In this document: piece by piece, positions 18,196 through 46,524 of the stretch
Position numbering within the stretch: the first letter of the stretch is position 1
How the letters are laid out: the number at the start of each line of letters is the position of its first letter
NCBI GenBank assembly: GCA_019359235.1
Contig: JAHHHT010000012.1
Location: forward strand, 3,648 to 67,647
From: Oscillatoria princeps RMCB-10
GTDB lineage: Bacteria > Cyanobacteriota > Cyanobacteriia > Cyanobacteriales > Oscillatoriaceae
DNA: 64,000 bases
Direction of reading: 5' to 3'
Notes under the pieces: generated by a model
What the model was told of the DNA's origin: nothing
The model's database searches: none
Seen by the model: the letters and a program-made list of their open reading frames with translations, nothing else
Position numbers and translations under genes: made by a program

Positions 18196-18316
18196 TTAGC
18201 CCAACTACAAACTTTAGGGCTAAAGCCCAACTACGAACTTTTGGGCTAAAGCCCAACTACGAACTTTTGGGCTAATACCCAACTACGAACTTTTGGGCTA
18301 AAGCCCAACTACAAAC
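18196..18316. repeat. tandem array (~4.5 copies) of a 27-bp unit ttttGGGCTAAAGCCCaactacgaac, each unit containing the hairpin GGGCT-AAA-AGCCC
   Basis: Seen directly. Single or paired copies of the same unit at 1236-1262, 16653-16680, 33537-33565 (inverted), 46451-46524 (3 tandem copies, inverted). Confidence 0.85.
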
Positions 18317-18331: not shown

Positions 18332-21007
18332 TCAAACGATCGTGCCGTCGGAAAAGAATACCTGGAACTCCTCAAACGACAGGTCAATAAACCCATCGTT
18401 ATTCCTGTCCCTGGAACCTGCCGGCGCATCTACGCCCCAGGGATTAAACACGACAATGCGCTCAGCGTCCGAGTCAGTCACATAGACCTGGGTAATTGCG
18501 TAAGGGTGATTGGCAACTATCAAGCCGGCTGAATTAGCCGCACTTTCTCTGTCAGTAGAGGCCGCTACAAACCGGCCCGTATCAAAAGCTTGGTTTATCC
18601 GCTCAAACGTGAAGTCCGCAAAGGTGCCGGTGGCGCGGCTGTCTCCATTCCTAAACACATCCGCCTTGCGGGAAGTCAGCTGGGAGATCGCCTCAGAAAC
18701 ATCACCCCCTCGGCTAATCAATTCATAGCCATTTGTCGCGTCCCCTTCTTGCCACTGCTGCCACACTGCGTAAGCTTTTTCCAGCAGCGTTATCCAAATC
18801 GGTCGGTTATTCGGGTTGCTGGGAACCTCCAGATTTTTGTCCTTAGCGCCGTATATCTCGCCGGCGTACACTGCCACATCCTGATTCACTGTCACCCACT
18901 GCTCAGCGCCGTTTTCGTAGAAGCGCACGCCGTAGGTTTGGTCGCCGTTATCAAAGATTGCACCGGCAATCGCCTCACTCGATTTTCCTGGATTGTTCCC
19001 CGCCACCGGCCTGAACGTTGCGCCAGCAGCCGCAATCAAAAAGCTGTCCGCAAACTGGTTTTGATTCACCTGCGAAATTTGCGGCACATTTTCGCTGCCA
19101 TACAGCTGTCCTGTTAGCCGCTGAAGTTCCAAGTTGAAAACCCTGGAATCCCCACTGCCGTCTGTCGCCGTGTAGGGAGGATTGTAAGGCTGAACAATCC
19201 CGCGAAACCAGCGGTTAACAATCTCCTTAAACGGAGCGGTTTGTACGGCTCCTAGACTGTTCGCTATCTTCCCGGCATCCTGAACAACCTGTTCCGCAAT
19301 AAACGCTACATAGGGCGGTAAATCAAACTGCTTCTGATTCCCCACTAAGGCTTTTAAATCCTGCAACTCAGCTTCCGTGACGATATCATCGTCTGTCGCT
19401 CTGTCAAATATCTGCAACATGTCGTTGCGGCTTAATTGCCCATCCGCAGACAGGGTGCGGGCGTCTGTTCGCACTTGCTCATCTTCCAAGCTGTTCAAGT
19501 CGAGGGTTGGGTCTGACAGCGGTGTCGAAACAAGACGGGCGTTCAAAGTGTAACTTCCTGTGGCGTCTTCATTAAAGCTCGTCACGCGCACGATGTACTC
19601 AGTTCCCGCATCTGCAGTGAAGGTCACGGCAGAGTTGAGGTCGCCCCGCGCCCGACCAAAATCTTTGCTTTCCGCAACCGGCATGCCGGTGAGGGCGTCT
19701 ATCACTTGCAGATAAGTTTCAAACTGCCCAGAATTGGCGCTGATTTGCACAATTTGATCCGCAGAAACGCCCGTCAGCCGGTAGTCATCGCTGTAGGTTC
19801 CGGGACGAGTGGGGTTATCCAAGTCCGTGGTGGCGAGGGAGTTGCTGCGGGAGGAGGAGACGGCGAGAGAAGCAACGATGGGGCTGGACGCATCTGCAGT
19901 CAGGGTGAAATTGCCGGTGCCGGCAAGCTGTTTGGGATCGCTCGTCACGCGAATTGCATATCGCACGCCTTGCTGCGCGGTAAAATTGAGCGCGGAATTG
20001 CTGTCGCTGCCGGTGGGGATGGCTTCTCCTGTGAGGGCGTCCACCAGTTCCAGGCGGGGGCTGAATTCGGTGGAGGTGAGGGTGACTTCTACCTGCTGAC
20101 CGGCAGTTACCTCTCGCAGGATGTAGTCTTTGGCGAAAGTCCCCTCTTGCAGGGGGTTAACTTTGTCTTGAAACGACAAATTGCCAATAATCGTGTCATC
20201 GCCACGGATGAAGTCAGCCTCTTCAAAGCCGGTTAAGAAGCTGCCGTTTTTTAGGGTGCGGCGCGGTTCCCTGATTCCACTGGTAATATAGTGTTTGTAG
20301 GCTCCCTCGAAGTTGAAACCGGCTGCCTGCAAGTCTGGGCTTGACTCTAAGTACGCTCTGACATTAAAATTCTCTGTGGAGGCGCGTCCTTCGTTAATGC
20401 CGGTGCTTTCAAAGTGTTCTAGCAGCTGCCGGTTGCTGAGGCGGGCAGACCGCAAGTCCGGATTGGCATTCCGGTAAAACTGAACATCAAACGCTGGGGA
20501 AAAGGGGCGACTTTCCGCCAGGCCGAAGTTTTCCAGGTGATCTAAAAGCTGCCGTCCTTTCAAACCGGCAGCGAACAAGTCTGGATTGTTTGCGAGATAG
20601 TAATTGGGGTCAAAGAAGGGGGATAAGTTGCGCTGTTCCGCTAAGCCGGATAGCAGCAGGTGGTCGTAGGCTTGCTCCAGGTTGCCCTTAAAGGCTTGCT
20701 GCAAGTCGGGGTTGGCTTCTAAATAATATTCTAAATCGATAAAGGGTGAAAATTTGCGCCCCTCCTGCAAGCCAAAGTTTTGCAAGTGCTCGAAGAGCTG
20801 TTTGTTGGTGGTCAAGCCGGCTGCTTTCAGGTCGGGGTTGGCTTGCCGGTAGAAGTTGAGGTTGATGAGGGGGGAGAAGGGACGCCCTTCGTTGAGGCCA
20901 AACTGCTGGAAGTGGAGCCGGAGCTGTTGGTCAGCTGTCAGACCGGCTGCTGCTAAGTCTGGGTTGACTTGCCGGTAGTAATTGACATCGAATAAGTCTT
21001 TGGCCAC
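18332..21007 (-). CDS. multidomain calpain-like (peptidase C2-fold) protein: 6-7 N-terminal ~38-aa repeats, two pre-peptidase C-terminal (PPC) domains, C-terminal calpain-like domain with Ser replacing the catalytic Cys
   Basis: Calpain core alignment: FADSFLIAAAGA (calpain GDCWLLAA), IWITLLEKAYAVW (FWSALLEKAYAK), LIVANHPYAIT (LVKGHAYSVT), IVVFNPWG (IRMRNPWG). N-terminal repeats NYY(R/L)xANPDL..AGL...LxHxxxFGLxEGR. Confidence 0.8.
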   Translation of the reverse strand: MAKDLFDVNYYRQVNPDLAAAGLTADQQLRLHFQQFGLNEGRPFSPLINLNFYRQANPDLKAAGLTTNKQLFEHLQNFGLQEGRKFSPFIDLEYYLEANPDLQQAFKGNLEQAYDHLLLSGLAEQRNLSPFFDPNYYLANNPDLFAAGLKGRQLLDHLENFGLAESRPFSPAFDVQFYRNANPDLRSARLSNRQLLEHFESTGINEGRASTENFNVRAYLESSPDLQAAGFNFEGAYKHYITSGIREPRRTLKNGSFLTGFEEADFIRGDDTIIGNLSFQDKVNPLQEGTFAKDYILREVTAGQQVEVTLTSTEFSPRLELVDALTGEAIPTGSDSNSALNFTAQQGVRYAIRVTSDPKQLAGTGNFTLTADASSPIVASLAVSSSRSNSLATTDLDNPTRPGTYSDDYRLTGVSADQIVQISANSGQFETYLQVIDALTGMPVAESKDFGRARGDLNSAVTFTADAGTEYIVRVTSFNEDATGSYTLNARLVSTPLSDPTLDLNSLEDEQVRTDARTLSADGQLSRNDMLQIFDRATDDDIVTEAELQDLKALVGNQKQFDLPPYVAFIAEQVVQDAGKIANSLGAVQTAPFKEIVNRWFRGIVQPYNPPYTATDGSGDSRVFNLELQRLTGQLYGSENVPQISQVNQNQFADSFLIAAAGATFRPVAGNNPGKSSEAIAGAIFDNGDQTYGVRFYENGAEQWVTVNQDVAVYAGEIYGAKDKNLEVPSNPNNRPIWITLLEKAYAVWQQWQEGDATNGYELISRGGDVSEAISQLTSRKADVFRNGDSRATGTFADFTFERINQAFDTGRFVAASTDRESAANSAGLIVANHPYAITQVYVTDSDAERIVVFNPWGVDAPAGSRDRNNDGFIDLSFEEFQVFFSDGTIV

Positions 21008-23440: not shown

Positions 23441-26400
23441 ATGTATGTGTACGCTACGCCAGAGTGCAAACGGAAGGCAAAGCAGCACAATGTAGAGGCA
23501 GTGGTTGAAAGACTTTGTGAGGAGGAGAACCCCCTGTCGCGCTTCAGGAGGTTTTCTCATGTCTACTTAAAAAAGACAGTGGACAGAAATCTCAGACTGA
23601 TTGCCAAGCTTGTCGAAACCTCGGACAGGGAGCCGGTGCTGTGCTTGCTCGATATTCTCAAACGCGGGGATGCGGACTATGAAATAGACTTCTGCTTTGA
23701 ACCAGAAGTCTTTGGCGAGAAGCGTTTAGATCCTTTGCTGGATATTGAACAGCTGCAGGAGTGGCTGAATGCACAGAAAAGGTTGCAAGAGCGTTCGGAG
23801 AGCAAAGCCAAGCCGGTTCCAGTGGAGTTACTTCCTTGGCTAGAGCTGCCCAAGTGGGGGATGGACGCCCAAGAACTTGTGATCTGTGAGAGCGAGGAAT
23901 GGGTTCGCCGGTTTAAGCTGAACACAATCCAACGGGACTGGCACTTCTACTGGGAAATAGTTTTCAATCTAGTTGAAAATTGCAGCAGTGCGCTCCAGGG
24001 ATGGGCGGAGGAAGAAACGGAGTGGCGGGGAGTGAAGCTGTGCGGAAATCCCGACGGGCGGTATGTGCTGTTCAGCCGGCTGGAAACGGCGGAAACAGGG
24101 GACACAGCGGCGCGGCAAGTCATCTTCCTGCTGGCTCCATTTAATGGCAAACCCGCGCCAAAAGAAATAGAGGAAGTCGGGCGGGAAACCAATCTTTTCA
24201 AATTAGGGAGCAGCCAGCTGTCGGACGTGCCGGCGCTGAAAGACTTAGCCCCCTACGCCCGACGTTCCTATCCGGGCTATATCCTGTACGATAAGGACAG
24301 CTGGAGCGAAATCGAGTGCGATGACGAGGCAAATATAGCGCTCTCAGCTGAAGAGGAGCAAATTCTCCAGTCCGTGTCAGCGCCGGGAAACAAATCCCTG
24401 CCAATCTTTATTAATGGACGTGCCGGCAGCGGCAAGTCTACCATTCTATTTTACCTGTTTGCGGACTACTGCGCTCGCCACCAGGAGTATTGCCAGCAGC
24501 AGGGAAAGAGCTTCGGTGAGAAACCCCACCCCCTGTTCCTCACTTACAGCAAAAGCCTGCTAGAGGTCGCTCAGAAGGTGGTGCGCCGGATTGTCGCGTC
24601 CCATCACAAGTTTGTAGCGAAAAGGACTGAAGAGATCCAGAAACTGTCCGCTGATGACTTGCAGCCACTTTTCAAGACATTTCGGGATTTTATCCTAGAC
24701 CTGCTTCCGCCCGACGAGCGCGACCGCTTCCAGCCAGAGAAGGAAATTTCATTCTATCACTTCCGGGAGCGATACAAGACGTGCAGGCTGCCAGAAGCTA
24801 AAGATAAAGATTGCCCTCCCGAACTCTGCTGGCACATCATTAAAACCTTCATCAAAGGGTATGACCTCGACGAGGAAGTAGACCCGGAATACTACCGGGC
24901 GTTTGTGCCCAGAAGAGAGCGCACTGTAGAGCCGGCTCTGTTCACAAAGATTTACGAAAGCATTTGGGAGAGGTGGTACAAAAGGCTGACAGCGGCGGAT
25001 GGCGAAGGCTACTGGGACGATCAGGACTTGGTGAGAAAAGTTCTGGAATCCGGGAGTTCCTCTCACGACTACACCGCCATCTTCTGCGACGAATCTCAGG
25101 ACTTCACGAGTTTGGAGCTCAAGCTAATCCGACAGCTGTCTGTTTTCTCGCAGTATGACTTTGGATACCAGCCGGTGCCGAGTTTGCCCTTTGCATTTGC
25201 CGGCGATCCGTTCCAAACCTTAAACCCGACGGGATTCCGCTGGGAAAGAGTTGGGTCTTCCTTCTACAGCGAAGTGCTCGCCAACCCGATCGGTGGCAAA
25301 AAGCTGGCTCTCGAAATGAACTTCCAGGAGCTAGAATTAAACTACCGCTCCAGTCACCCCATCGTTCGGCTCACCAATTTGATACAGCTGTGGCGGTGCG
25401 TTCGCTTTGGGCTAGACGACCTCAAACCCCAGAAACCCTGGCAGAACAAAGACAGTTCCCTGGAGCCGCACAAGTTCATCTTTGGCGAAAACCTCTCCCT
25501 GGAAAAGCTGAAACCCCACATCCAAAAAAAGCCCATCTTTATTATACCTTGTGAGGCCGGCGGGGAAATCGACTACATCCGCAATGATCAGATCCTGCGC
25601 GAGATATTCCCGGACGTGACAGAGGAGAATCCGCCTGAGAACCTGTGCAGCGCTATCAAAGCAAAGGGACTGGAGTTTCCCCTGGTTATCCTGTACAAGT
25701 TTGGCGACGAGCTGCACAAAAGATACAGCCACAGGGAGGTTTGGGAGCGTGCCGGCGATCGCTCAGACCATTTAGTGGGGCTGGAATACTTTTTCAACAA
25801 GCTGTACGTCGCAGCCAGCCGCGCTATGTCAGACTTGTTTGTGATAGACTCAAAAGAAGGAGATCGCATACTTTGGCAGTACGCCGGCGACTCCCAGATA
25901 GAGCGATTACTGCAGCTGGCGGGCGGTGGCGCACGCTGGAAAGACCTTGTGGGAACCCTCGCCCTTGGCGAAGATATAGCAGCGCTCGATAAAGACAACC
26001 GGCAGTCTCAAGCCGAGCAGTTGAAAAAGCGGGGGATGCAGGAAAAAGACCCGCAAGACTTGCGAGCCGCCGCTAAATTTTACAGAGCGCTTGGGTGCGC
26101 AGAAGAAGCCAAACGCTGCTCGGCGTTCGCCTTGAAATTCGACCGGCAATACAGGGAAGCCGGTCAGCTTTTCCTGGAACTCGGCGAAAAAGAGCCGGCT
26201 TGGGAATGCTTCTGGGATGGACTGTGCTGGCAAAATTTGCTAGAATGGTATTCGGTATCTCCTGAACGGAAGAGAGAGTACCGCCCCCTCGTCGAGTTCA
26301 TGGCTGAAAACCCGAAAACCCAACAGGTAATTAACGATTTTACGGAATTCCTGGAAACCCTCGAACTCGAACAGCTCAGCGATAATCGCATGCGCCAGCA

Positions 26401-27598
26401 ATGGCAGAAAGCTGTGCGAGAGTATGCCGGTCTAATCCAAGGTTTGACTATCTTCCAGCAAGTTCACCGGCCAAACTGGCAGCGGTTTGGGGAAATTGTG
26501 GAAAAGTTGGCAGAGGCTCGCTATAATGGAATGCGCGAGCTAGCGGGAGACTGTTTCTTCCGCACGGGCACCCGCGAGAACCTGGAACGCGCTGTGGAGT
26601 GCTGGGAGGCTTGCGGCGCAACTCAAAAGCGCGAGTATTACTTGGCTAAAGCTGAGTTAACTAAAATTCCAGAGCGCCTGGAATATTTGGAAAAGGCAAA
26701 GGACTTCCAGCGCCTGCTGGGAGAGTGGGAGCGTGCCGGCAAACCAGTCACCCCGCCGTGGTCAAAATATGTTGAGCCGGCTCTGGACAGCCAGAAGCGG
26801 TACGCGGATCTGGCTGAGTGTTTAATTCGCGGGACTCAGTGGCTAAAAGCCATAGAAGTGTTAGAAAAACACCCGGAAACCGCAAGTTTGGGTTTTTATG
26901 TCGTGCGGGAACTGGCTCGCTCAAACCTAGCGGCACAGAATTTTCTGGAGGATATGTGCCGGCGCTACGAGAGATTCATCAGCACCCATGTCCTCTCAAA
27001 TCCCAACTGGCTGCAGCAGGTTTCGCCGCAGGAAGTGGGAGCCGCACTGGAGAAAACGGGCGAGCTTGTAGCCACCTTAAGGTTTTACGAGGGATTCACT
27101 GACAGCCGCGACCAGATCCTGAAAAATTTGGCGCGTGAGCGATGGATAAAGAACAAGAAAAAGCAGGCGGATTACCACCGGCATAAAGGAGAAACGAACA
27201 GAGCGGAAGAAATTCGGGCGGAAATTTTACTCAAGGCAAATGAGTGGCGAATCTCGACCGCCCGACTGATTTGCCGGCACGCCGGTGCGCCGGTGGGAGA
27301 ATTTTTACTGGATGGCAGCAGCAAGTACAGAGTTGGGCGCTTCAGTTCCGATGCCGGTCGCGACGATATCATCGACCTGCAAAAATTCCCGCAAGGCGAG
27401 TACATCTCCCGCAGTCACGCTGAAATTTATCAAGAGGGCGGGGAGTGGAAAGTCTTAGATACCGGCTCGCGCGCAGGGGTGTTCATTCAGCGTGCCGGTC
27501 AGGAGCGCCGGCACGCTTTAGTTGATGTGCCGGAAATTTTAAAAGCCGGTGATGAGGTAGTCTTTGCAACTATTCCCTTCCTGTTTCAAACACCTTGA
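23441..27598 (+). CDS. large UvrD/PcrA-like SF1 helicase-family ATPase with unknown ~300-aa N-terminal domain, helical (TPR-like) region and C-terminal FHA domain
   Basis: SF1 motifs: I INGRAGSGKSTIL (nt ~24415), II FCDESQDFT, IV LNYRSSHPIV, VI AKGLEFPLVIL. C-terminus YRVGRFSSDAGRDDIIDL...ISRSHAEIYQEGGEWKVLDTGSRAGVFI is an FHA fold. Confidence 0.8.
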   Translation: MYVYATPECKRKAKQHNVEAVVERLCEEENPLSRFRRFSHVYLKKTVDRNLRLIAKLVETSDREPVLCLLDILKRGDADYEIDFCFEPEVFGEKRLDPLLDIEQLQEWLNAQKRLQERSESKAKPVPVELLPWLELPKWGMDAQELVICESEEWVRRFKLNTIQRDWHFYWEIVFNLVENCSSALQGWAEEETEWRGVKLCGNPDGRYVLFSRLETAETGDTAARQVIFLLAPFNGKPAPKEIEEVGRETNLFKLGSSQLSDVPALKDLAPYARRSYPGYILYDKDSWSEIECDDEANIALSAEEEQILQSVSAPGNKSLPIFINGRAGSGKSTILFYLFADYCARHQEYCQQQGKSFGEKPHPLFLTYSKSLLEVAQKVVRRIVASHHKFVAKRTEEIQKLSADDLQPLFKTFRDFILDLLPPDERDRFQPEKEISFYHFRERYKTCRLPEAKDKDCPPELCWHIIKTFIKGYDLDEEVDPEYYRAFVPRRERTVEPALFTKIYESIWERWYKRLTAADGEGYWDDQDLVRKVLESGSSSHDYTAIFCDESQDFTSLELKLIRQLSVFSQYDFGYQPVPSLPFAFAGDPFQTLNPTGFRWERVGSSFYSEVLANPIGGKKLALEMNFQELELNYRSSHPIVRLTNLIQLWRCVRFGLDDLKPQKPWQNKDSSLEPHKFIFGENLSLEKLKPHIQKKPIFIIPCEAGGEIDYIRNDQILREIFPDVTEENPPENLCSAIKAKGLEFPLVILYKFGDELHKRYSHREVWERAGDRSDHLVGLEYFFNKLYVAASRAMSDLFVIDSKEGDRILWQYAGDSQIERLLQLAGGGARWKDLVGTLALGEDIAALDKDNRQSQAEQLKKRGMQEKDPQDLRAAAKFYRALGCAEEAKRCSAFALKFDRQYREAGQLFLELGEKEPAWECFWDGLCWQNLLEWYSVSPERKREYRPLVEFMAENPKTQQVINDFTEFLETLELEQLSDNRMRQQWQKAVREYAGLIQGLTIFQQVHRPNWQRFGEIVEKLAEARYNGMRELAGDCFFRTGTRENLERAVECWEACGATQKREYYLAKAELTKIPERLEYLEKAKDFQRLLGEWERAGKPVTPPWSKYVEPALDSQKRYADLAECLIRGTQWLKAIEVLEKHPETASLGFYVVRELARSNLAAQNFLEDMCRRYERFISTHVLSNPNWLQQVSPQEVGAALEKTGELVATLRFYEGFTDSRDQILKNLARERWIKNKKKQADYHRHKGETNRAEEIRAEILLKANEWRISTARLICRHAGAPVGEFLLDGSSKYRVGRFSSDAGRDDIIDLQKFPQGEYISRSHAEIYQEGGEWKVLDTGSRAGVFIQRAGQERRHALVDVPEILKAGDEVVFATIPFLFQTP

Positions 27599-27858
27599 AA
27601 CCGGGCGGATAAGCCGGCAGCCCTAGGGCGCTGGACATTCCTGCGATCGAGAACCCCACCCCCCAACCCCCTCCCCGTAAACGGGGAGGGGGAGCAAGAG
27701 GGGATTACCCTCGTTCGCCGGCGGAGCGGGGGAGATGCCCAAAAGGAGGCTGCGGATATATCTCGCAGGACAGGCGTCTCGCCTGTCCCAATCTGTCCCA
27801 ATCTCCTTGAGAGCGAGCGAGATGACATTTTTTCCAACAGCTGTTAATATACTGCAGA

Positions 27859-30192
27859 GTGCTAAAAAATGGGAACGAAACGTTTCCCCCACCAACCAGC
27901 CAGCCGCCAAGTAAAACCACCCAGTTCAGCCCAATGACGCCCCTAGATTACACCTCAGAAACCCTCCTCGAACAACTTCCCCAGCTGAGTGACGAGCAGC
28001 TGAAACGGGAGTATTTGAATTCCCTGAAATGGACAGAACCCCTAGCGCAGATGTTAGCGCGTGCCGGTTCGGAAGAGCAAGCGCTGCGAGCGGTAAAACT
28101 AGCCCTAGAAGTGGACTGGCAACTGGGCGCAAAGCTAGCAGGAGCGGTCAAACCGGCATTTCAGGCGCAAACTGTAGAGCTAGTTGCTAATTTAGACATT
28201 CCCCAACACCTGAAGCTTAAACTGTTAGGCATCACCCGCTCTGACAGCGCCATCTCACCCGTGGCGCAAGCTTTGAGCGCGGAAGACTACGATATTCGCT
28301 CTAGCGCTGTCGAGGCATTAGGGGAAATCGGCTCAGAGGCGGCGGCGAGCCGGCTGCTGCAAGTTTTGGACTCGGAAAACTCCGGAATTCGCCAGAGCGC
28401 TTTCGAGGCGCTAGGGCAAATTGCCTCGCCAGCAACAGTACCGCTATTGCTGCTCGCCCTCAACGACGAAGACGTAGCAATCAGCGCACTGCTGGCGCTG
28501 GTGAAAATCAGCCCTGAAGCCGGCGCAACAGGATTGCGGCAAGTTTTAAACCATCAAACCGAGGCGGTTCGCCAAGAGGCGAAAAATCTCTTAACCGGCG
28601 GCGAAGAAATCAGCTCTCAGGCGTGGGTGGCGACGCTCGTGCGAGCCCTGAAAGATAGCGATTCAGAAGTTCGCATTTCTGCGGCAGTGGGGCTGCACGA
28701 AATCGGCTACACCTTGCGGAGAACCGGCGACTCGTCTGCAGTGGAACCCCTGATTCAAACTGTGCGCGACGAAAACCCAGAAGTTCGCCGGTGGGCGGCT
28801 GCAGCTTTAGGGCGAATTGGCACCGAAACAGCAGTGCCGGCGCTCATAGAAGCTCTCAGCGATGAAAACCCCAAAGTTCGCAGCTCCGCTGCTAGTGCGC
28901 TGTACGAAACCGGCTCAAGAGCCGCCGCGCCGGCGCTCACCCTAGCCCTGAACGATACCGAGCGTTTGGTTCGCGCTTCCGCTGCAGAAGCCCTCGGCAA
29001 AATTGGCTCCGAATCAGCCGTGCCCGATCTAGTGCGAGCTTTAAACGATGAAAACCATACCGTTCGCGAGAGCGCAGCTTCTGGGCTGGGAAAAATCGCC
29101 ACACAAGCTGCTGTCGAGGCGCTCATTCAAGCCCTCAGCGATCCAACCCCTCACGTTCGCGCCACCGCTGCAGTAGCCTTAGGAGAAACCGGAGCGGAAG
29201 CTGCAGTGCCGGCACTCTTGGAAGCCCTGAAAGACAGAGACTCTCAAGTTCGCGACAGCGCCGCAGTGGCATTAGGAAATATCGGCTCCTCAGAAGCCGT
29301 GCCGGCGCTCGTGCAAACCTTACTCGATGACATCGCTCTCGACTCTGGCTGCGATTTTAAAGTTCGTTCCGAAGCCGCCAAAGCCTTAGGAAAAATCGGC
29401 TCGGAAACCGCTGTGGCAGAACTCGTGCAAGCCTTGAACAACCCAGACGCTTTAGTTCGCGAACTCGCTGCCTATGCTCTGAGAAAAACTGCCACACTGG
29501 TAGCTGCACCGGCACTCCTGCAAGCGCTGAAAGATGAAGACTACCACGTTCGCGCCAGCGCTGCAGTAGCCTTAGGGAATATCGGCTCCGAAACCGCAGT
29601 GCCGGCGCTCATTGAAGCATTCAGCGACGAAAAATGGATGGTTCGTGAAGACGCAGCCGAAGCCGTGGGTAAAATCGGCGCTAAATCCGCAGTGCCGGCA
29701 CTGCAGCAACTTTTGAATGAGGACTCCCCCGAACTTCGCCGCAAGGCGGCTGAAGCCTTAGGGAAAATCGGTTCCGAAACTGCACTTCCCGCCCTGCTTG
29801 AAGCTTTGAGCGACGAACACTATAAGGTGCGTCATGAAGCTGCCGAAGCCTTACAGAAAATCGGCTCCTCTGCAGCTGTAGAAAAACTCCTGCACGCTTT
29901 GACCCACCACAATTCCAGGGTTCGCTGGAAAGCTGCCGAAGCCTTAGGCGAAATTAACTCGATCGCCGCCGTGCCGGCACTGCTGAAAGCCCTCAGCGAT
30001 GACGACTCTGACGTTTGCCGCAGTGCAGCCAAAGCCTTAGGTAAAATCGGCAGCCCTGAAGCTCTGCCGAGTCTGTCCCCACTCCTGCGCAGTGAGAACC
30101 GATTTGTAATTTCCGCCGCGCTCGATGCAATCTCTGCGATTCAAGAGCGTTGCGGTTATTACAATAGCGCCCTGGTAAGCTCGGATTTATGA
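27859..30192 (+). CDS. HEAT-repeat protein (PBS-lyase HEAT-like repeats, ~18 units)
   Basis: Iterated ~31-aa units LxALxDEdxxVRxxAAxALGxIGSExAVPAL throughout; unique ~150-aa N-terminal region. Confidence 0.8.
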   Translation: MLKNGNETFPPPTSQPPSKTTQFSPMTPLDYTSETLLEQLPQLSDEQLKREYLNSLKWTEPLAQMLARAGSEEQALRAVKLALEVDWQLGAKLAGAVKPAFQAQTVELVANLDIPQHLKLKLLGITRSDSAISPVAQALSAEDYDIRSSAVEALGEIGSEAAASRLLQVLDSENSGIRQSAFEALGQIASPATVPLLLLALNDEDVAISALLALVKISPEAGATGLRQVLNHQTEAVRQEAKNLLTGGEEISSQAWVATLVRALKDSDSEVRISAAVGLHEIGYTLRRTGDSSAVEPLIQTVRDENPEVRRWAAAALGRIGTETAVPALIEALSDENPKVRSSAASALYETGSRAAAPALTLALNDTERLVRASAAEALGKIGSESAVPDLVRALNDENHTVRESAASGLGKIATQAAVEALIQALSDPTPHVRATAAVALGETGAEAAVPALLEALKDRDSQVRDSAAVALGNIGSSEAVPALVQTLLDDIALDSGCDFKVRSEAAKALGKIGSETAVAELVQALNNPDALVRELAAYALRKTATLVAAPALLQALKDEDYHVRASAAVALGNIGSETAVPALIEAFSDEKWMVREDAAEAVGKIGAKSAVPALQQLLNEDSPELRRKAAEALGKIGSETALPALLEALSDEHYKVRHEAAEALQKIGSSAAVEKLLHALTHHNSRVRWKAAEALGEINSIAAVPALLKALSDDDSDVCRSAAKALGKIGSPEALPSLSPLLRSENRFVISAALDAISAIQERCGYYNSALVSSDL

Positions 30193-30243
30193 ACCGCCAA
30201 GACGCCAAGAGCGCCAAGTTTTAGAAGGGGAAGCAGCTATCTA

Positions 30244-31896
30244 ATGGAATCTCAAAATTCTCTTGACAAAAACGCCCGGAAACTGCTAGAATGTCTGGCA
30301 GGTGAAAATCGTCTGAGTCGCCGGCGTGCCGCCCGCGCCTTAGCGCAAATCCCCACAGACGCAGCCGTTACCGGGCTGCTGGGAGCGCTCAACTCTCCAG
30401 ACTGGGAGATTCGCGGTTTGGCGGCTTGGGCGCTCGGGCAAATCCGCACCGGCACAGCCATTACCGGCTTGCTGCAAGCCCTCAGCCACCCAGACACTGA
30501 AATTCGCCAGTGGGCGGTTTGGGCGTTGGGGGAAACCGGCACCGGCGCGGCAATTTCTGGGTTGCTGGAAGCCCTCCAGCATCAAGACTCTGAAGTTCGC
30601 TGGCGGGCGGCTTCCGCACTGGGAAAAACCGGCGATTCCGCCTGTATTGCCCCCCTGCAGTCAGCCCTCAGCGATCGGGAGTCAGAAGTTCGCGGAAAAG
30701 CCGCTGCAGCCTTAGGAAAAATCGGCTCTCCCACAGCAGTTGCGGCGCTGCTGCAAGCCCTCAGCGATGACGATTGCGTTCGCTGGAAAGCCGCTTCTGC
30801 CTTAGGGGAAATCGGCTCAGATGAGGCTGTCGCTGGGTTGCTGCAACTGCTCAGCCACCTGGACTCGGAGATTCGCGGACTTGCCATCTGGGCGTTAGGA
30901 AAAATAGGCTCTCAGCCGGCAATTGACGGATTGCTGCACGCGCTCAACAATCCAGATTCCTCTCTGCGCACAAAAGCCGCTGAAGCCCTAGGGGAAATCG
31001 GCAGTGCGCAGGCTGTTCCCGCCCTGCTGCAAGCCCTCAGCGATGCGGACTTTTATGTTCGCTGGAGAGCGGTTTCAGCCTTAGGAGAAATTGGCTCACC
31101 GGCAGCAATTTCCGGACTGCTGCAAGCCCTCGAAGATCAAACCTCCTCAGTTCGCGGCTCAGCCGCTACCGCCTTAGGAAAAATAGGCTCGGAGTCAGCA
31201 ATTCCCGCACTCGCGCGAGCGCTCGACGATGAGAGTTCCTCTGTTTGCCAGAGAGCCGGTGAAGCTTTGAAAAAAATCGCAACCCCAGCCGCACTCGCCG
31301 CACTGCACCCAAATTCTGTTGAAGCTGACAGCAGCGCCCAAGAAGAACAGCAAACCTCCCCTCAGACTATTATAACAGAAGTTCAGAGCGATAAACTGCC
31401 CAAACTATTCATCACCGGCTGTGCGGAAGCCGGCGCTCACATCCTCTGCAAAATAAGAGGGCCATTAATCAAACATCTGATCTCGATAGGCAGCCCGGGC
31501 GTACCGCTCCCCCACGGGTACAGCCAAGTTCCCCACCGGCTGCGGCTGGAATTTAACGACATACACGCGCCCGATAGCGACCCGGAATTAGTTCTGCCCA
31601 CCGTTCAAGATATACTCAAAGTAATAGACTTCGTATCTTCAGTTTCGCAGTTCGACGACCACCTGCTCATCCACTGCCAAGCCGGCATCAGCCGCTCCTC
31701 AGCAGTAGCCTTAACAGTTTGCGCCCACATCCTGGGTGCCGGGAAAGAAAAAGAAGCCCTGGATTACATCCTAGCCGCCAGACCCCAAGCCAGACCTAAC
31801 TGGTGGATAGTAGAATTAGCAGATGAAGCCTTGAATCGAGATGGCCGGTTAGTGCGAGCCATTGAAACCTCAGGCATCTATCCAGGGATAGACTAA
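30244..31896 (+). CDS. HEAT-repeat protein fused to a C-terminal dual-specificity/tyrosine-phosphatase-like domain
   Basis: About 10 HEAT-like units, then DHLLIHCQAGISRSSAVAL, which is an exact HCX5R(S/T) PTP active-site signature, with an upstream Asp-rich loop (HAPDSDPE). Confidence 0.8.
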   Translation: MESQNSLDKNARKLLECLAGENRLSRRRAARALAQIPTDAAVTGLLGALNSPDWEIRGLAAWALGQIRTGTAITGLLQALSHPDTEIRQWAVWALGETGTGAAISGLLEALQHQDSEVRWRAASALGKTGDSACIAPLQSALSDRESEVRGKAAAALGKIGSPTAVAALLQALSDDDCVRWKAASALGEIGSDEAVAGLLQLLSHLDSEIRGLAIWALGKIGSQPAIDGLLHALNNPDSSLRTKAAEALGEIGSAQAVPALLQALSDADFYVRWRAVSALGEIGSPAAISGLLQALEDQTSSVRGSAATALGKIGSESAIPALARALDDESSSVCQRAGEALKKIATPAALAALHPNSVEADSSAQEEQQTSPQTIITEVQSDKLPKLFITGCAEAGAHILCKIRGPLIKHLISIGSPGVPLPHGYSQVPHRLRLEFNDIHAPDSDPELVLPTVQDILKVIDFVSSVSQFDDHLLIHCQAGISRSSAVALTVCAHILGAGKEKEALDYILAARPQARPNWWIVELADEALNRDGRLVRAIETSGIYPGID

Positions 31897-31915
31897 TATC
31901 CAACCTCTTGGCGTC

Positions 31916-33340
31916 TTGGCGTCTTGGCGGTTCATTTCCCTCCCTCCCTCCCTTCCCAAAACTCAAAACTTTTTTTATAATACCAGCAAGGAGAAAGCAG
32001 TTAACATGACAGAGCAACGCGACACCGATTCACCCCCAGCTGATTCCGGACAGTTGGACAAACCGGCGGCTCAGCCCCTGACAGCTGAGTCAGAAGATCA
32101 TTCCCCCGCCAGCCGCATTGCGGGCATCTGGAGAGACGCAACCGCACGCTTGCAGCAACTCATGCCCCTAGAGCAAGTGGGGCAAACAGTTGTAAACTGG
32201 TTTAGCGTTGGCGAAGAGCGGGTTGCAGAGATTTTGGAAACCGTTCGGGCTCAACTGCCCACCACAGAAGCCCTCCTCATTGGCAAACCCCAAGCCGGAA
32301 AAAGTTCCATTGTGCGGGGGATGACAGGAGTTTCTGCTGAAATTGTCGGTCAGGGATTTCGCCCCCACACGCAACATACCGAGCGCTACGCCTATCCGTC
32401 AAAAGACCTGCCCCTGCTGATTTTCACCGATACCGTCGGACTGGGAGATGTCAGCCAGGACACTCAGACCATTATACAGGAACTGTCCGGCAATTTGCAA
32501 CAGCAAACTCGCTGCGCCAGAGTCCTGATTCTCACCGTCAAAATCACTGATTTCGCCACCGGCACACTGCGACAAATTGCCACAGAGTTGCGCCAGAAGT
32601 ATCCCAACATCCCCTGCTTGCTGGCGGTGACGTGCTTGCATGAACTCTATCCTTCCGGCACTGCCGATCATCCCGCTTACCCGCCCGAATATGAGGAAGT
32701 CAGCCGAGCCTTCGCTGCCATTCAAGAAACTTTTGCGGGGCTGTACGATCGGGCTGTCGCCATTGACTTCACCCTGGAAGAAGACGGATACACCCCCGTG
32801 TTTTATGGCTTAGAAGCGCTGAGAGACACCCTAGCAGACTTGCTGCCAGAAGCGGAAGCCGGTGCCATTTACCAGTTATTAGATGAAAAAGCGGGCCGGC
32901 AGCTGAGCGATCTCTACCGAGATGTCGGACGCCGGTACATTTTAGCCTTTTCCATTATGGCAGCCGCCCTAGAAGCCGTGCCGCTGCCACTTGCCAGCAT
33001 GCCGGTGCTAATTGCCTTGCAAATCTCGATGGTGGGTTTGCTGGGGAGACTGTACGGGCAAACACTAACTGTATCGCAAGCAGGAGGAGTTGTCAGCGCA
33101 ATTGCCGGCGGTTTTCTAGCCCGCGCTGTTGGAAGAGAATTAATCAAATTTGTGCCCGGAATAGGCACCGCAATCGCCGCCTCATGGGCGGGTGCGTACA
33201 CCTGGGCGCTCGGCGAAGGTGCCTGCGTGTACTTCGGTGATTTAATGGGGGGCAAGAAGCCAGATACCAAGAGAATTCAGTCCGCAATGCGAGAAGCCTT
33301 CCAGACAGCCAAAGAACGGTTTAAGGAAATCAAACGCTGA
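31916..33340 (+). CDS. HSR1/YfjP-type P-loop GTPase with C-terminal hydrophobic/amphipathic domain (DUF697/YcjF-like)
   Basis: G1 LIGKPQAGKSSIV, G3 FTDTVGLGD; C-terminal ~130 aa rich in Gly/Ala helices (MPVLIALQISMVGLLGRLYG...IAASWAGAYTWALG). Start may be the internal MTEQRD. Confidence 0.7.
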   Translation: MASWRFISLPPSLPKTQNFFYNTSKEKAVNMTEQRDTDSPPADSGQLDKPAAQPLTAESEDHSPASRIAGIWRDATARLQQLMPLEQVGQTVVNWFSVGEERVAEILETVRAQLPTTEALLIGKPQAGKSSIVRGMTGVSAEIVGQGFRPHTQHTERYAYPSKDLPLLIFTDTVGLGDVSQDTQTIIQELSGNLQQQTRCARVLILTVKITDFATGTLRQIATELRQKYPNIPCLLAVTCLHELYPSGTADHPAYPPEYEEVSRAFAAIQETFAGLYDRAVAIDFTLEEDGYTPVFYGLEALRDTLADLLPEAEAGAIYQLLDEKAGRQLSDLYRDVGRRYILAFSIMAAALEAVPLPLASMPVLIALQISMVGLLGRLYGQTLTVSQAGGVVSAIAGGFLARAVGRELIKFVPGIGTAIAASWAGAYTWALGEGACVYFGDLMGGKKPDTKRIQSAMREAFQTAKERFKEIKR

Positions 33341-33776
33341 GCGCTTCTCCCCACCCCGTAGGGTGCCGTTCCGAGCGGGAACGCACCCGAAGAGTTTATT
33401 TACCAAAATTGCTAGTTTCCGGGCGATTAGAAATCGCGGCTATACAGACTTTCGCCCGCCTACGCGGGCTAATATAACATCGATCTTATCAAAATATGCG
33501 CGGTTTTACCTCGTTTCCAAGCTCTGACTTGAAAATGTTTGTAGTTGGGCTTTAGCCCAATCGGCGGGACTCGTAGGGGCGCAGAATTTTCATCGGTGGC
33601 GGTGTGCGCAGTTCCGAAGCGACTGCCTGGAAACTCAGGGAGAAGATGGAGCCGGCGCACAATCTCTTCAATTACAACTTTCAGAATTACTCCTCCTTTA
33701 GATAGGGAGCGAAAACCCATCACAGAAGTGTTACAACTAGCAGTATAACAACTCTAACCCAAACAAGCAAAAGACA

Positions 33777-35693
33777 ATGGTGCGATTAAAACTGTGGCAA
33801 TGGATCGTGCTAGCACTGCCGGTCGCCAGCATCATCATCTTCCTGATGGTAGCAGCGGGGCAGCACATCAACCAGTGGGGCATTAACTGGATCTGGGGGG
33901 TATTCACCCTCGCATTAGTCGGCTGGCGCTGGCTGCTGGTCAAATGGACTCGACCGGCAATAGACCAGGTGGAAGCCCTTGTAGCGCAAGTCAGCAAAGA
34001 AATAGAACCCCCTGCAGACAGTACCGCCGCCCAGCCGGCACCAGATGAGGCTGCAATTAAAGCGCAAACCGCACTCCAAGACATCCTCAAAGCCTCACAA
34101 AACGACCCACCGGCATGGGAAGACTGGCAGACCTTTTGGCAGCGGTGCCAGGAACTTGTGATCGCCATTGCCGGCATCTACTATCCCGAAGATAACTATC
34201 CCCTGCTCAACATTTACGTTCCCCAAGCTTACGCCCTGATTCGGGGAACACTGGACGACTTAGATCGCTGGATGCAAAACTTATCCCCCGCCCTCAATCA
34301 AGTCACAGTTGGGCAGGCATACCAAGCATACGAAGTTTACCGCAAGCTGGAACCCTCCGCTCGCAAACTCTCGCAAGCCTGGAACTGGGCGCAGTGGCTC
34401 CTCAACCCAGCAGCTGCAGTAGCAGCACTGATCAGCCGGCGTTCCAGCAACCGCGCAACTCAGGAACTCGTGGTGAATTTGAGCCAGCTGCTGCGGGAAG
34501 CAGCCCTGCGCAACCTGTGCCGGCAGGCGATTGCCCTCTACGGAAGCCGCACCCTGCCGGCGGCTGCATTTTCCACTCCCGCACCGGCACTGGCTTTAGT
34601 CAAAACCCAAACCCTCCGAGACATCCTCGAACAAGCCGAACCCGTCGAAACAGTTGAGCAAAAACCCGTCACTATTCTGATTGCGGGGCGAACCGGCGCT
34701 GGCAAAAGCAGCCTGATTAACACCCTATTTCAAGCAGATCGCGCAGCGGTCGATGTTTTGCCCAGCACCGAGCGGATTGAAAATTACCGCTGGCAAACTG
34801 AAACTGGAGAAAGCCTGACCCTCTTGGATACCCCCGGTTACGAACAAGTCAACCGTGCGGATTTGCGGGAATTAGTGCTTGATTGCGCCAAAAGCGCCGA
34901 TTTGTTGCTATTAGTCAACCCAGCCGGCGATCCCGCCCTGCAAATGGATGTAGACTTTCTCAAAGATATCAAAACACAAGTTACAGATTTACCCGCACTC
35001 GCCATTGTTACCCAGGTAGATCGCCTGCGTCCAGTACGCGAATGGCAGCCCCCTTACGACTGGGTTTGGGGCGATCGCCCCAAGGAAAAAGCCATTCGGG
35101 AAGCCACCCAGTATCGCGCTCAACTCCTCGGCGAGTTTTGCCAGCGAGTTTTGCCGGTCGTCACCGGCGACAGTAAAGCCGGTCGAGTCGCCTGGAATGC
35201 CGACGTCCTGTCATTAGCGCTGCTAGAAGAGATCGCGCCGGCTAAACAGCTCCGCCTCGCCCGCTTTTTGCGCCATCTGGACGCCCGCACCGCCGCCGCC
35301 GCCAAAATCATCGACCGCTACACCTTCCAAATGGCCACAACCCAAGGCGTGACCGCACTGCTCAAAAGTCCCGTCCTCCAGTTTCTCAGCACACTCTCCA
35401 CCGGCTCTCCCACCCTAGCCTATCTGCTCGCAGAGAAAATTCCCGCCGAACAGTTGCCGGTGGTTATTGGCAAACTCCAGATGGCTTATGAGCTGTTCTC
35501 GCTGTTTAACACAGACGATTCTAGCCCGCTCAACTTTGACCTGCGCTCCCTCTGGCCACTTCTGCAGGAAAACTCCGCCTCACCCGACCGCAATGCCTCC
35601 GCATTTGGTCACGCCCTAGTGGAGTTCTGGACTCAAAATCTCACAGTTGAGCAACTCCGGGAGCGCTTTGAATACTATCTCAAGCACGTTTAA
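33777..35693 (+). CDS. membrane-anchored HSR1/YfjP-type GTPase (2 N-terminal TM helices, central G domain, ~250-aa C-terminal domain)
   Basis: TM: WIVLALPVASIIIFLMVAA and IWGVFTLALVGWRWLLV; G1 ILIAGRTGAGKSSLINTLF, G3 LLDTPGYEQ, G4-like VTQVD. Confidence 0.75.
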   Translation: MVRLKLWQWIVLALPVASIIIFLMVAAGQHINQWGINWIWGVFTLALVGWRWLLVKWTRPAIDQVEALVAQVSKEIEPPADSTAAQPAPDEAAIKAQTALQDILKASQNDPPAWEDWQTFWQRCQELVIAIAGIYYPEDNYPLLNIYVPQAYALIRGTLDDLDRWMQNLSPALNQVTVGQAYQAYEVYRKLEPSARKLSQAWNWAQWLLNPAAAVAALISRRSSNRATQELVVNLSQLLREAALRNLCRQAIALYGSRTLPAAAFSTPAPALALVKTQTLRDILEQAEPVETVEQKPVTILIAGRTGAGKSSLINTLFQADRAAVDVLPSTERIENYRWQTETGESLTLLDTPGYEQVNRADLRELVLDCAKSADLLLLVNPAGDPALQMDVDFLKDIKTQVTDLPALAIVTQVDRLRPVREWQPPYDWVWGDRPKEKAIREATQYRAQLLGEFCQRVLPVVTGDSKAGRVAWNADVLSLALLEEIAPAKQLRLARFLRHLDARTAAAAKIIDRYTFQMATTQGVTALLKSPVLQFLSTLSTGSPTLAYLLAEKIPAEQLPVVIGKLQMAYELFSLFNTDDSSPLNFDLRSLWPLLQENSASPDRNASAFGHALVEFWTQNLTVEQLRERFEYYLKHV

Positions 35694-37851: not shown

Positions 37852-38607
37852 TTGGAAACGAGCACTTTTAGGACTCATCCCATGCACCCTATCCTCCAGC
37901 AAATCTTCAGCAGGTTGCTTTACCACACGCGCCTGATTTTGTCAATCGCCCTGGTCGTTTTGGCCGCGTCGCAGTTCGCGCCACCGGCAGGAGCCACCGG
38001 CGTCTATCAAATGCCCGCCCTGAAAGCCGGCGAGCCCACCTGGACGATCGACTTTGATGACGTGCTCAGCCGCAGTACAGAAAACCAGCTGAACAGCGTC
38101 TCGGAAAAGCTCGCCGAAAAAACAGGCAATCAGGTGAGGTTCGTCACCATCCACCGGCTGGACTACGGCGAAACCATCGACAGCTTCACCAACAAGCTGT
38201 TTGAAACATGGTTCCCCACCCCTGAAGCGCAAGCGAATCAAACCCTGCTGGTTCTGGACACCCTCACCAACAACTCCGCCATCCGCACCGGCGACCGAGT
38301 CAAGAGCCTGATGTCCGATCAGATCGCCCTCAGCATTGCAACGGAAACCCTGCAAGCTCCCCTGCGCCAGGGCAACAAATACAATCAGGCGTTCGCCGAC
38401 GCCAGCGAGCGCCTGCAAGCCGTGCTTTCGGGCCAGCCTGACCCGGGCCCGCCTCAAGTCGCGGACGCCCTGAACGTAGAGAGCACCTTTAAAAGCGCAG
38501 AAGAAACCGACACCGGCAACGCCACGATTGTCGTCGTGGTGCTGTTAATTGCCGCCACCGTCATCCCGATGCTCACCTACTTCTGGTATCAAAATTTTTC
38601 AGGCTAG
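37852..38607 (+). CDS. TPM-domain protein (Psb32/TLP18.3-like; signal peptide + C-terminal TM anchor)
   Basis: N-terminal hydrophobic signal (LILSIALVVLAASQFAPPAGA); TPM-like core DFDDVLSRSTENQLNSVSEKLAEKTGNQVRFVTI; Gly-rich linker and C-terminal TM IVVVVLLIAATVIPMLTYFWY. Start may be the Met at 37882. Confidence 0.65.
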   Translation: METSTFRTHPMHPILQQIFSRLLYHTRLILSIALVVLAASQFAPPAGATGVYQMPALKAGEPTWTIDFDDVLSRSTENQLNSVSEKLAEKTGNQVRFVTIHRLDYGETIDSFTNKLFETWFPTPEAQANQTLLVLDTLTNNSAIRTGDRVKSLMSDQIALSIATETLQAPLRQGNKYNQAFADASERLQAVLSGQPDPGPPQVADALNVESTFKSAEETDTGNATIVVVVLLIAATVIPMLTYFWYQNFSG

Positions 38608-38987
38608 TCCTGCACGTACTCGCAGCCACTCACCAGCCCCATCTCAGCCCGCACAAACTCCCGCCCCAGATAAGCTGCGTGATCCAGCAGCGTCACGGGA
38701 CAGGGCTGAGTTTGCTCAAAAATCTTGACGCAAAGTTCCTTAGCTGTCCTGCCGGCGAACAGCCGCGTGTGGGTGCGCTCCACCTTACCCCGTGCGGGAA
38801 TCACCTTGCCGGTTTGAGGATCTACAGCCAGCCCGCGTTCGTCAATCGCATTGCTGAAATGCTTGGCGCAAATTAACCCCGCCTCCCGATCCAGGTAAAT
38901 GATAAAATAGCCGCCCGGGTCGAGGTCGAGGTGACGCTGGGAAAGCTTTTCATCAATCGCGGTTATATTTTCTAGGGTTTGAGTCAT
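38604..38987 (-). CDS. conserved hypothetical protein (possibly DUF4346-like)
   Basis: 127-aa ORF with LDLDPGGYFIIYLD motif; overlaps the convergent TPM gene by 4 nt; family assignment is tentative. Confidence 0.5.
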   Translation of the reverse strand: MTQTLENITAIDEKLSQRHLDLDPGGYFIIYLDREAGLICAKHFSNAIDERGLAVDPQTGKVIPARGKVERTHTRLFAGRTAKELCVKIFEQTQPCPVTLLDHAAYLGREFVRAEMGLVSGCEYVQD

Positions 38988-46450: not shown

Positions 46451-46524
46451 GTTTGTAGTTGGGCTAAAGCCCAAAAGTTCGCAGTTGGGCTAAAGCCCAA
46501 AAGTTCGCAGTTGGGCTAAAGCCC
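46451..46524. repeat. 3 tandem copies of the GGGCTAAAGCCC-containing 27-bp unit (inverted relative to 18196-18316)
   Basis: gtttgtagttgggctaaagcccaaaagttcgcagttgggctaaagcccaaaagttcgcagttgggctaaagcccc. Confidence 0.85.

Follow-up and report, generated by a model that had tools for sequence, protein, structure and literature searches.

A five-gene block of Oscillatoria princeps that probably joins three separately evolving modules, one of them a toxin-fold helicase

Do five closely spaced genes on one strand of a cyanobacterial genome encode one machine? The question is raised by a stretch of 64,000 nucleotides from Oscillatoria princeps RMCB-10 (contig JAHHHT010000012.1, positions 3,648 to 67,647; hereafter the window), in which five consecutive genes, denoted p1 to p5, encode a giant ATPase with an FHA domain, two HEAT-repeat proteins, one of which carries a phosphatase domain, and two GTPases. 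A preliminary description of this DNA proposed that the five form one system with shared phospho-signalling. We compared the neighbourhoods of related genes and found no HEAT or GTPase gene at 41 p1 loci and no HEAT or p1 gene at 82 p4 loci, which argues against a single system. Our best explanation, for which we estimate a probability of about three in four, is that three modules that evolve independently, p1, p2/p3 and p4/p5, have recently come to lie side by side in one genus-level clade. In addition, the UvrD-like helicase of p1 is preceded by an N-terminal domain with a RelE-type toxin fold, which had been missed. The five genes are as follows (lengths in amino acids, aa).

23441..27598, plus strand: p1, 1385 aa, open reading frame (ORF) for a giant stand-alone protein with Pfam AAA_16, UvrD_C and FHA matches
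27934..30192, plus strand: p2, 752 aa, N-domain of ~110 aa followed by ~20 PBS-lyase-type HEAT repeats; no catalytic domain
30244..31896, plus strand: p3, 550 aa, ~11 HEAT repeats, then a Cys-based phosphatase domain of the dual-specificity type at the C-terminus
32006..33340, plus strand: p4, 444 aa, GTPase fused to a YcjF/DUF697-like membrane domain; core cyanobacterial gene
33777..35693, plus strand: p5, 638 aa, N-terminal transmembrane (TM) anchor, helical region, GTPase domain and helical C-terminus; core cyanobacterial gene

Conservation of the five-gene neighbourhood

The complete block was found elsewhere only in Oscillatoria sp. PCC 10802 (L001), whose p1 is 89% identical to that of the window. 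A metagenome-assembled genome of Oscillatoria sp. Prado101 (L002/L049) carries the same block without p3 and without the FHA domain of p1. A scan of a genome collection anchored on p1 yielded 43 loci from several phyla. The 41 loci outside the clade came from Microcoleaceae, Coleofasciculaceae, thermophilic Synechococcus/Thermostichus, Chloroflexota and Pseudomonadota, and further from Bacillota, Bacteroidota, Acidobacteriota, Armatimonadota and KSB1, and in none of them did p1 have a HEAT or GTPase gene nearby, the downstream sequence reaching at least 5 kb in 29 of the 41. Nor did p1 have any widely conserved neighbour across the loci surveyed. The reciprocal survey, anchored on p4, comprised 80 loci from a metagenome scan and three genome loci. 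HEAT and p1 genes were absent from the vicinity of p4 in 82 of these 83 loci, the sole exception being Prado101 (L049), and the p4 orthologues of Scytonema HK-05 and Coleofasciculus, like the p5 orthologue of Nostoc punctiforme, stand in unrelated surroundings. These counts, like the gene and domain content, are direct observations, and the two surveys together confine the five-gene unit to one genus-level clade.

The only widely conserved link within the block is that between p4 and p5. Where p4 was flanked by at least 9 kb of sequence on either side (25 loci), a p5 orthologue lay within 10 kb in eight cases; in a genome of ~7 Mb, random placement would lead one to expect ~0.3% per locus. The pairing of the two GTPases, as the preliminary description had it, is therefore real. 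Its further statement that one of them is membrane-anchored needs correction, since both contain strongly hydrophobic segments (residues 4-32 of p5 and 311-347 of p4).

Several other features of the block stood up to closer analysis. The five ORFs, originally delimited as 23441-27598, 27859-30192, 30244-31896, 31916-33340 and 33777-35693, are indeed all on the plus strand and correspond to the consecutive GenBank proteins MBW4494518 to MBW4494522. Pfam profile search reproduced the earlier domain readings (AAA_16, UvrD_C and FHA in p1, HEAT in p2, HEAT and DSPc in p3, and MMR_HSR1 in both p4 and p5), and no kinase gene was found inside the block, as had been noted. Two gene starts required correction. 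The mechanical start of the p2 ORF is GTG at 27859; the likeliest start is ATG at 27934, giving 752 aa, the length called in a close relative (L134). For p4, ATG at 32006 yields a 444-aa protein that is 100% identical to the deposited one and agrees with orthologues of 443-445 aa that begin with MTEQRDTD. Accordingly, the intergenic gaps change from the reported 261, 52, 20 and 437 bp to 335, 51, 109 and 436 bp, mainly between p1 and p2 and between p3 and p4. The two longer gaps are:

27599..27933, no strand: p1-p2 intergenic region, palindromic dispersed repeats and then a conserved promoter-like stretch
33341..33776, no strand: p4-p5 intergenic region, dispersed repeats

Both were said to be filled by repeats only, which is confirmed in part: the repeats are present. 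The p1-p2 gap also contains a promoter-like ATGACA-17-TAATAT element at 27822-27850, in a region that is near-identical in three genomes. The 109-bp gap between p3 and p4 carries a TATAAT-like box and a Shine-Dalgarno sequence. The promoter-like elements upstream of p2 and p4 suggest separate transcription units. The p4-p5 spacer also differs in length among close relatives, being 436, 815 or 1053 bp when the window is compared with L001 and L049.

None of the five proteins was assigned to a defence family in PADLOC-DB v2.0.0, and no system was matched, so the comparison with defence catalogues that had been suggested gave a negative answer. The domain-level matches obtained were to HEAT-ARM_XIII (p2, p3), LeoBC/LeoA (p5) and GajB (p1, E = 0.008).

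The toxin-fold helicase p1

Five regions were distinguished in p1:

23441..23740, plus strand: residues 1-100, RelE/ParE/HigB-superfamily toxin fold; K44, R52, R75 and Y80 conserved family-wide
23873..24325, plus strand: residues 145-295, second N-terminal alpha/beta domain
24338..25870, plus strand: residues 300-810, superfamily 1A (SF1A; UvrD/Rep-type) helicase core, with six motifs and Pfam matches of homologues
25871..27310, plus strand: residues 811-1290, conserved helical region rich in Trp and Cys, seen as conserved alignment columns
27317..27595, plus strand: residues 1293-1385, FHA domain, with a Pfam FHA match and PDB matches to GarA and OdhI

Pfam returned nothing usable for the isolated N-terminus and C-terminal helical region of p1; relatives of the latter are named 'TPR repeat protein' by some sources. 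The N-terminal 300 residues were modelled confidently (predicted local distance difference test score, pLDDT, 86.7), and residues 1-100 of the predicted structure show the beta-alpha-alpha-beta-beta-beta fold of the RelE/ParE toxin superfamily. Lys44, Arg52, Arg75 and Tyr80 are kept in 36-37 of 37 homologues, from all sampled phyla. Their spacing resembles that of the RelE active site (K52/K54, R61, R81 and Y87). We infer from this spacing, and not from a residue-level superposition, that the two sets are equivalent; the domain may instead have a ParE-like, non-nuclease role.

The helicase core contains motif I (GRAGSGKST, 24416-24442), motif II (DESQDF, 25088-25105), motif III (GDPFQTLNP, 25202-25228), motif IV (NYRSS, 25340-25354), motif V (KGLEF, 25664-25678) and motif VI (YVAASRA, 25805-25825). 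All six are invariant across an alignment of 25 p1 sequences, in which motif II takes the form DE(A/S)QDFT and motif VI reads LYVAASRA, and p1 therefore appears to be a real UvrD/Rep-type motor, more than an AAA-like ATPase. The window protein itself scores 24.3 bits on Pfam UvrD_C against a gathering threshold of 25.6; homologues exceed the UvrD thresholds (P0008, UvrD_C 28.1; P0110, UvrD_C 27.4 and PF00580 25.9 against 23). Sequence and profile searches of the PDB with p1 returned FHA and P-loop matches only and no closer helicase relative.

The FHA domain scores 30.4 bits on the Pfam model (cut-off 20.7) and shows the GR pair at residues 1299-1300 and the SxxH motif (SRSH) at 1323-1326; its 'NG' loop has Ala in place of the usual Asn (GSRAG). 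The domain is confined to the closest relatives (P0001-P0003). No p1 homologue outside the Oscillatoria clade has an FHA domain; these proteins carry a different, conserved beta-rich C-terminal domain instead, indicating a clade-specific domain replacement. This speaks against a conserved five-gene system with FHA as a part of it, and what remains of a link between FHA and phosphatase is a single correlated loss. FHA and p3 occur together in the window and in PCC 10802. In Prado101, FHA has been removed by a clean in-frame deletion of ~315 bp that kept the last nine codons (IPFEFQTP compared with IPFLFQTP), which indicates loss and not primitive absence. The p3 gene is missing there through the removal of ~1.65 kb: 49 nt of its 5' end are left, with ATG-GAA changed to ATG-TAA, after which the sequence resumes with the stretch found 3' of the p3 stop codon in the window. 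The alternative that p3 was inserted in the other genomes was rejected because these 49 nt, including the ATG, remain in Prado101. Otherwise, p2 and p1 of Prado101 are intact (91% and 83% identity). The comparison comprised these three genomes, as the contigs of two further relatives from the clade, L134 and L135, end before p3.

The family of p1, with proteins of ~1,400 aa, is represented by 326 homologues, mostly from filamentous cyanobacteria. No antitoxin gene lies next to p1, and no small neighbouring gene is conserved across p1 loci. The sole recurrent neighbour belongs to the Lyngbya/Limnoraphis/Planktothrix group, in which a gene for a rhodanese-like protein of 120 aa with a CHHGxRS loop lies directly 3' of the p1 homologue (L003 11715-12077, L008 14409-14771, L017 14513-14875 and nine further loci); it is not present in the window. 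We considered it as an antitoxin and rejected it because it is conserved in one cyanobacterial clade only.

The preliminary description had also named defence islands as one of two obvious contexts. This holds for the p1 family outside cyanobacteria, where the neighbouring genes include those for Cas10, Cmr4 and Cas6 in L022, for a helicase resembling Mokosh MkoA in L025 (7e-118) and for an AbiP2 reverse transcriptase in L041 (1e-164), besides a CARF nuclease and methyltransferases of types I and II. It does not hold for the neighbours of p1 in cyanobacteria. A complete p1-family homologue of 1450 aa was also seen at the end of a prophage-like contig (L137 184-4536, IMG/VR UViG_3300044737_000121), where its neighbours encode a transposase, both terminase subunits (large and small) and a ParB-methyltransferase. 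The homologue may be cargo of the phage or part of flanking host DNA.

The HEAT-phosphatase genes, the GTPase pair and the surrounding sequence

The second module consists of p2, which matches Pfam HEAT_2 at 4e-133, and p3. The phosphatase domain of p3 scores 34.6 bits on Pfam DSPc (cut-off 33.5), carries the motif HCQAGISRS at residue 477 (window 31672-31698) and is classed as a Cys-based dual-specificity phosphatase (DSP). In the PDB it matches DUSP10, DUSP16 and DUSP5, with DUSP structures found at 8e-5. A full-library search returned 2,490 relatives of the domain, the closest of which are HEAT-DSP proteins of 390-640 aa. In six of them (P0373, P0374, P0377, P0379, P0382 and P0385; 535-640 aa), the N-terminus matches the N-domain of p2, a region of ~110 aa with the motif LLxQLPxLSDEQLK...ALRxVKLALEVDxxLGAKLAGAVKP, and the remainder matches p3. 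Since the single-gene relatives thus combine the start of p2 with the remainder of p3, the two genes look like the products of a fission, or of a duplication followed by reciprocal loss. Some HEAT repeats of p3 are visible in the DNA as a 93-bp tandem repeat (30345-30613; 2.9 copies, 74% matches), suggesting recent repeat expansion.

The single-gene HEAT-DSP genes have neighbours of their own. A divergent SIMPL gene adjoins them in all three loci with upstream sequence (L129, L132 and L133), and orthologous HAMP histidine kinases follow them in L130 and L131. Orthologues of the window genes at 37852-38987 come immediately after a p3-type gene in L136, with neither p4 nor p5 between. HEAT-DSP genes also occur without kinase or GTPases (L133 and L136). 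The family, which joins a scaffold to a phosphatase and is associated with SIMPL and the HAMP kinase, is here caught in split form.

Turning to the GTPases, p4 has the P-loop GKPQAGKSS (32282-32308) and the G3 sequence DTVG, with no clear G4, and scores 30.5 bits on Pfam MMR_HSR1 (threshold 21.9) and 22.2 bits on DUF697 (threshold 27.7); many of its orthologues come with a precomputed PF05128 assignment, and the name YcjF family is given to some. The P-loop of p5 is GRTGAGKSS (34686-34712), with G3 DTPG and G4 TQVD; this protein scores 48.6 bits on MMR_HSR1 (threshold 21.9) and matches Dynamin_N at 1e-9. By Pfam score and the presence of G1 and G3, both belong to the TRAFAC-class MMR_HSR1-type GTPases; at 26% identity (E = 3e-5), the two G domains are related as distant paralogues. 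Pfam gave nothing usable for the isolated N- and C-terminal regions of p5, and neither protein matched an NCBIfam equivalog. An AlphaFold2 model of p5 reached a pLDDT of 50 from a very shallow alignment of 30 sequences with 83% mean identity.

The listed orthologues of p4 outside the clade (Coleofasciculus, Scytonema and Nostocales) are 76-81% identical, and those of p5 in Nostocales, including Nostoc, and Chroococcales are 74-77% identical. Such conservation, at 75-80% across cyanobacterial orders, suggests a core membrane function, and the two look like a core cyanobacterial membrane GTPase pair. At 12 of the 13 linked loci p5 lies downstream of p4, and at 10 both genes share a strand. They are immediate neighbours in L049, L059 and L082, and in L107 they adjoin each other in divergent orientation; elsewhere, various genes are often inserted between them. 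In Microcoleus FACHB-672 (L048 8108-9890), the two orthologues are separated by three genes on the minus strand, of which one encodes a Toxin-deaminase domain. In Scytonema HK-05 (L044/L045 16053-19633), the p4 orthologue is followed by a gene for a small MMR_HSR1 GTPase and, ~5-8 kb away, by genes for a Ser/Thr kinase and an FHA-GAF-guanylate cyclase; this is a further neighbourhood that combines GTPase, FHA and kinase genes, but probably a coincidental one. Our literature search found no work on these cyanobacterial orthologues of p4 and p5.

The block is bordered by SurE and epimerase genes on the minus strand upstream and by an epimerase gene downstream, and the flanking genes also include aspartokinase. 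The wider window contains housekeeping genes mixed with typical cyanobacterial signalling proteins, and no compact defence island. Among these is a 990-aa STAND protein (49482-52454, minus strand) with a NACHT domain, HEAT repeats and a C-terminal NCC-H domain, a second HEAT-repeat protein of the window and a typical conflict/signalling NTPase of filamentous cyanobacteria. Further genes encode a KilA-N protein (17049-17879, plus), an 891-aa calpain-type peptidase (18332-21007, minus), a 931-aa protein with 14 WD40 repeats (43450-46245, minus) and a 754-aa caspase-domain protein (61010-63274, plus). A 1625-aa ORF (6804-11681, plus) matched no Pfam family at E <= 1e-5.

The dispersed palindromic repeats of the two long gaps, which include CCTCCCCGTAAACGGGGAGG-like units, are also found elsewhere in the window. 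The palindromic repeat GTAGTTGGGCTTTAGCCCAA occurs nine times in the window against zero expected. It forms short tandem arrays with a 26-bp period at 18198-18316 and 46457-46524 (4.6 and 2.6 copies, respectively), and single copies lie at 1240, 16648 and 33541. An Rfam scan of the whole window gave no match, so the intergenic repeats do not belong to known RNA families.

Weighing the explanations, and related systems

In our preferred explanation, the three modules have separate histories and would not form one machine. Module A (p1) would be a single-polypeptide nucleic-acid surveillance or conflict protein, whose toxin-like domain would be gated by the helicase as the latter, driven by ATP, engages nucleic acid; the outcome would be cleavage of RNA or arrest of translation. 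In the O. princeps clade, the replacement of the usual beta-rich C-terminal domain by FHA would have brought it under phosphothreonine control. Module B (p2/p3) would be a split or duplicated derivative of the one-gene N-domain-HEAT-DSP family and may provide envelope or two-component signalling with a scaffold-bound phosphatase. Module C (p4/p5) would be a housekeeping heteromeric membrane GTPase pair, acting for example in membrane maintenance or remodelling. The fold and motifs of p1 were read directly from its model and alignment; all biochemical activities, and any functional coupling, are predicted from such features. We also entertain, tentatively and with the odds against it, the bolder proposal that p1-family proteins are single-polypeptide immune or abortive-infection effectors, in which a UvrD-type sensor gates a RelE-type ribonuclease and whose Oscillatoria version was rewired to phosphothreonine control through FHA and the HEAT-DSP phosphatase.

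FHA domains bind phosphothreonine, and the block could encode a lineage-specific circuit that formed after the genes had come together. In it, the newly gained FHA domain of p1 would read a phosphothreonine mark set by a kinase from another locus, and p3, possibly with p2 as its scaffold, would remove the mark. Phosphorylation would then switch the toxin-helicase, with the GTPases as bystanders or membrane recruiters. The domain retains the phosphate-binding Arg and the Ser-x-x-His motif, and its co-occurrence with p3 in two genomes and the independent deletion of both in Prado101, where p1 and p2 are otherwise intact, would fit such a circuit. However, this pattern comes from one lineage and the co-loss may be coincidence; the 'NG' loop has lost its Asn, the substrate of the p3 phosphatase could be non-protein, whereas FHA binds phosphothreonine, the block is without a kinase, and the promoter-like elements suggest separate transcription. 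We regard the circuit as doubtful. A different origin is conceivable for p2 to p5 without p1, namely as the remnant of an older envelope-signalling neighbourhood of SIMPL, HEAT-DSP, HAMP histidine kinase, p4 and p5, where the two membrane GTPases would have the phosphatase and the kinase as their regulators. Besides the SIMPL and HAMP kinase genes that adjoin HEAT-DSP genes, the same kinase (53-54% identity) and SIMPL (47-49%) are found directly upstream of p4, with p5 nearby, in Microcoleus FACHB-672 (L048). This is, however, the only one of 83 p4 loci with the kinase; no HEAT gene adjoins p4 outside the clade, the HEAT-DSP genes of L133 and L136 lack both kinase and GTPases, and a slowly decaying inherited gene order fits the pattern equally well, which makes the remnant unlikely.

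The least probable of these explanations is that the whole block is a new multi-gene anti-phage defence system in which the helicase would act as sensor and the GTPases as effectors, alongside scaffolds and a phosphatase. The defence-island neighbours of the p1 family in other phyla and the domain-level PADLOC matches of p2, p3 and p5 might be taken to favour it, but these matches reflect HEAT repeats and generic G domains, and no system was matched. Defence genes are typically patchy and fast-evolving; p4 and p5, at 75-80% identity across orders and amid housekeeping genes, show the opposite pattern. With the five genes together in one genus-level clade only, and flanks formed by SurE, epimerases and aspartokinase, the synteny survey has already largely refuted this reading.

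Several observations weigh against the juxtaposition of separate modules that we prefer. Gene order is kept within the clade at 83-93% protein identity, and the short p2-p3 and p3-p4 gaps (51 and 109 bp) allow co-transcription. The loss of both FHA and p3 from Prado101 by two separate deletions is what a functional FHA-phosphatase link would predict, a hint that comes from one lineage. The relic neighbourhood of HEAT-DSP genes, HAMP kinase and p4 seen in L048 indicates that the p3-p4 adjacency may predate the clade. Furthermore, p2- and p3-type orthologues outside the clade were sampled in six loci only, mostly on short contigs, and the cyanobacterial neighbours of p1 are not defence genes and gave generic matches only.

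Taken together, these data indicate that the five-gene block should not be catalogued as a signalling or defence system. Here, shared orientation and close spacing in a single genome gave the wrong impression, which calls for caution in scans of cyanobacterial genomes. The novelty lies in the p1 family, an uncharacterised stand-alone toxin-helicase family that spans several phyla, is not in PADLOC and is a candidate for a new single-gene conflict system, and in its FHA-bearing variant, a natural handle on the regulation of the toxin-helicase; it lies less in the unstudied GTPase pair.

All three modules have partial counterparts among known systems. The HEAT_PBS repeats of p2 and p3 resemble those of CpcE/F and NblB and score strongly on the CpcE and NblB models; assignment as a phycobilin lyase or NblB was rejected because the scores are repeat-driven and fall below the NCBIfam equivalog cut-offs (258.9 against 330 for CpcE, 200.6 against 300 for NblB). 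With its HCX5R(S) motif, p3 resembles eukaryote-type dual-specificity phosphatases; our literature search for HEAT repeats combined with a dual-specificity phosphatase found no characterised fusion. As in E. coli, where YcjF (DUF697) is associated with the NTPase YcjX, p4 associates a membrane domain resembling DUF697/YcjF with a P-loop GTPase, but here an MMR_HSR1-type G domain is fused to the DUF697-like domain. As a pair of GTPase genes, p4 and p5 recall LeoA/LeoBC. The PADLOC matches of p5 to LeoBC and LeoA (8e-15 and 9e-12) are at the level of the G domain only, covering positions 74-179 of the 601 of the LeoBC profile, and the G domain of p5 is central and follows a TM anchor, unlike that of dynamin-like/LeoABC proteins.

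For p1, the closest precedent is CnuH of the CoCoNuT systems, which are predicted RNA-targeting relatives of type IV restriction systems (PMC11090510). CnuH likewise carries an N-terminal RelE/colicin-D-fold, 'RNase toxin-like' domain on a superfamily 1 helicase and occurs in a defence context, the RelE-like domain being predicted only (PMC11090510). In contrast to p1, CnuH is UPF1-like (SF1B), contains SmpB-like or OB domains and shares its McrBC-type operons with genes for CnuB/C and CnuE effectors, whereas p1 has UvrD/Rep-type motifs (NYRS and KGLEF), stands alone and possesses a different helical C-terminus, followed in the window by FHA. The toxin-fold domain also sets p1 apart from the type II toxins RelE, ParE, HigB, YoeB and YafQ and from the CARF-RelE effector Cami1: it forms the N-terminus of a 1,385-aa protein, shares 8-21% identity with them, has no adjacent antitoxin gene, and its activity is predicted only. 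Through its six motifs and the family's Pfam UvrD_C and UvrD-helicase matches, p1 resembles the SF1A helicases UvrD, Rep and PcrA, and it matches the Gabija helicase GajB weakly (E = 0.008), without a GajA-like partner. Unlike UvrD/Rep/PcrA and GajB, however, p1 is twice their size and bears additional domains at both its N- and C-terminal ends.

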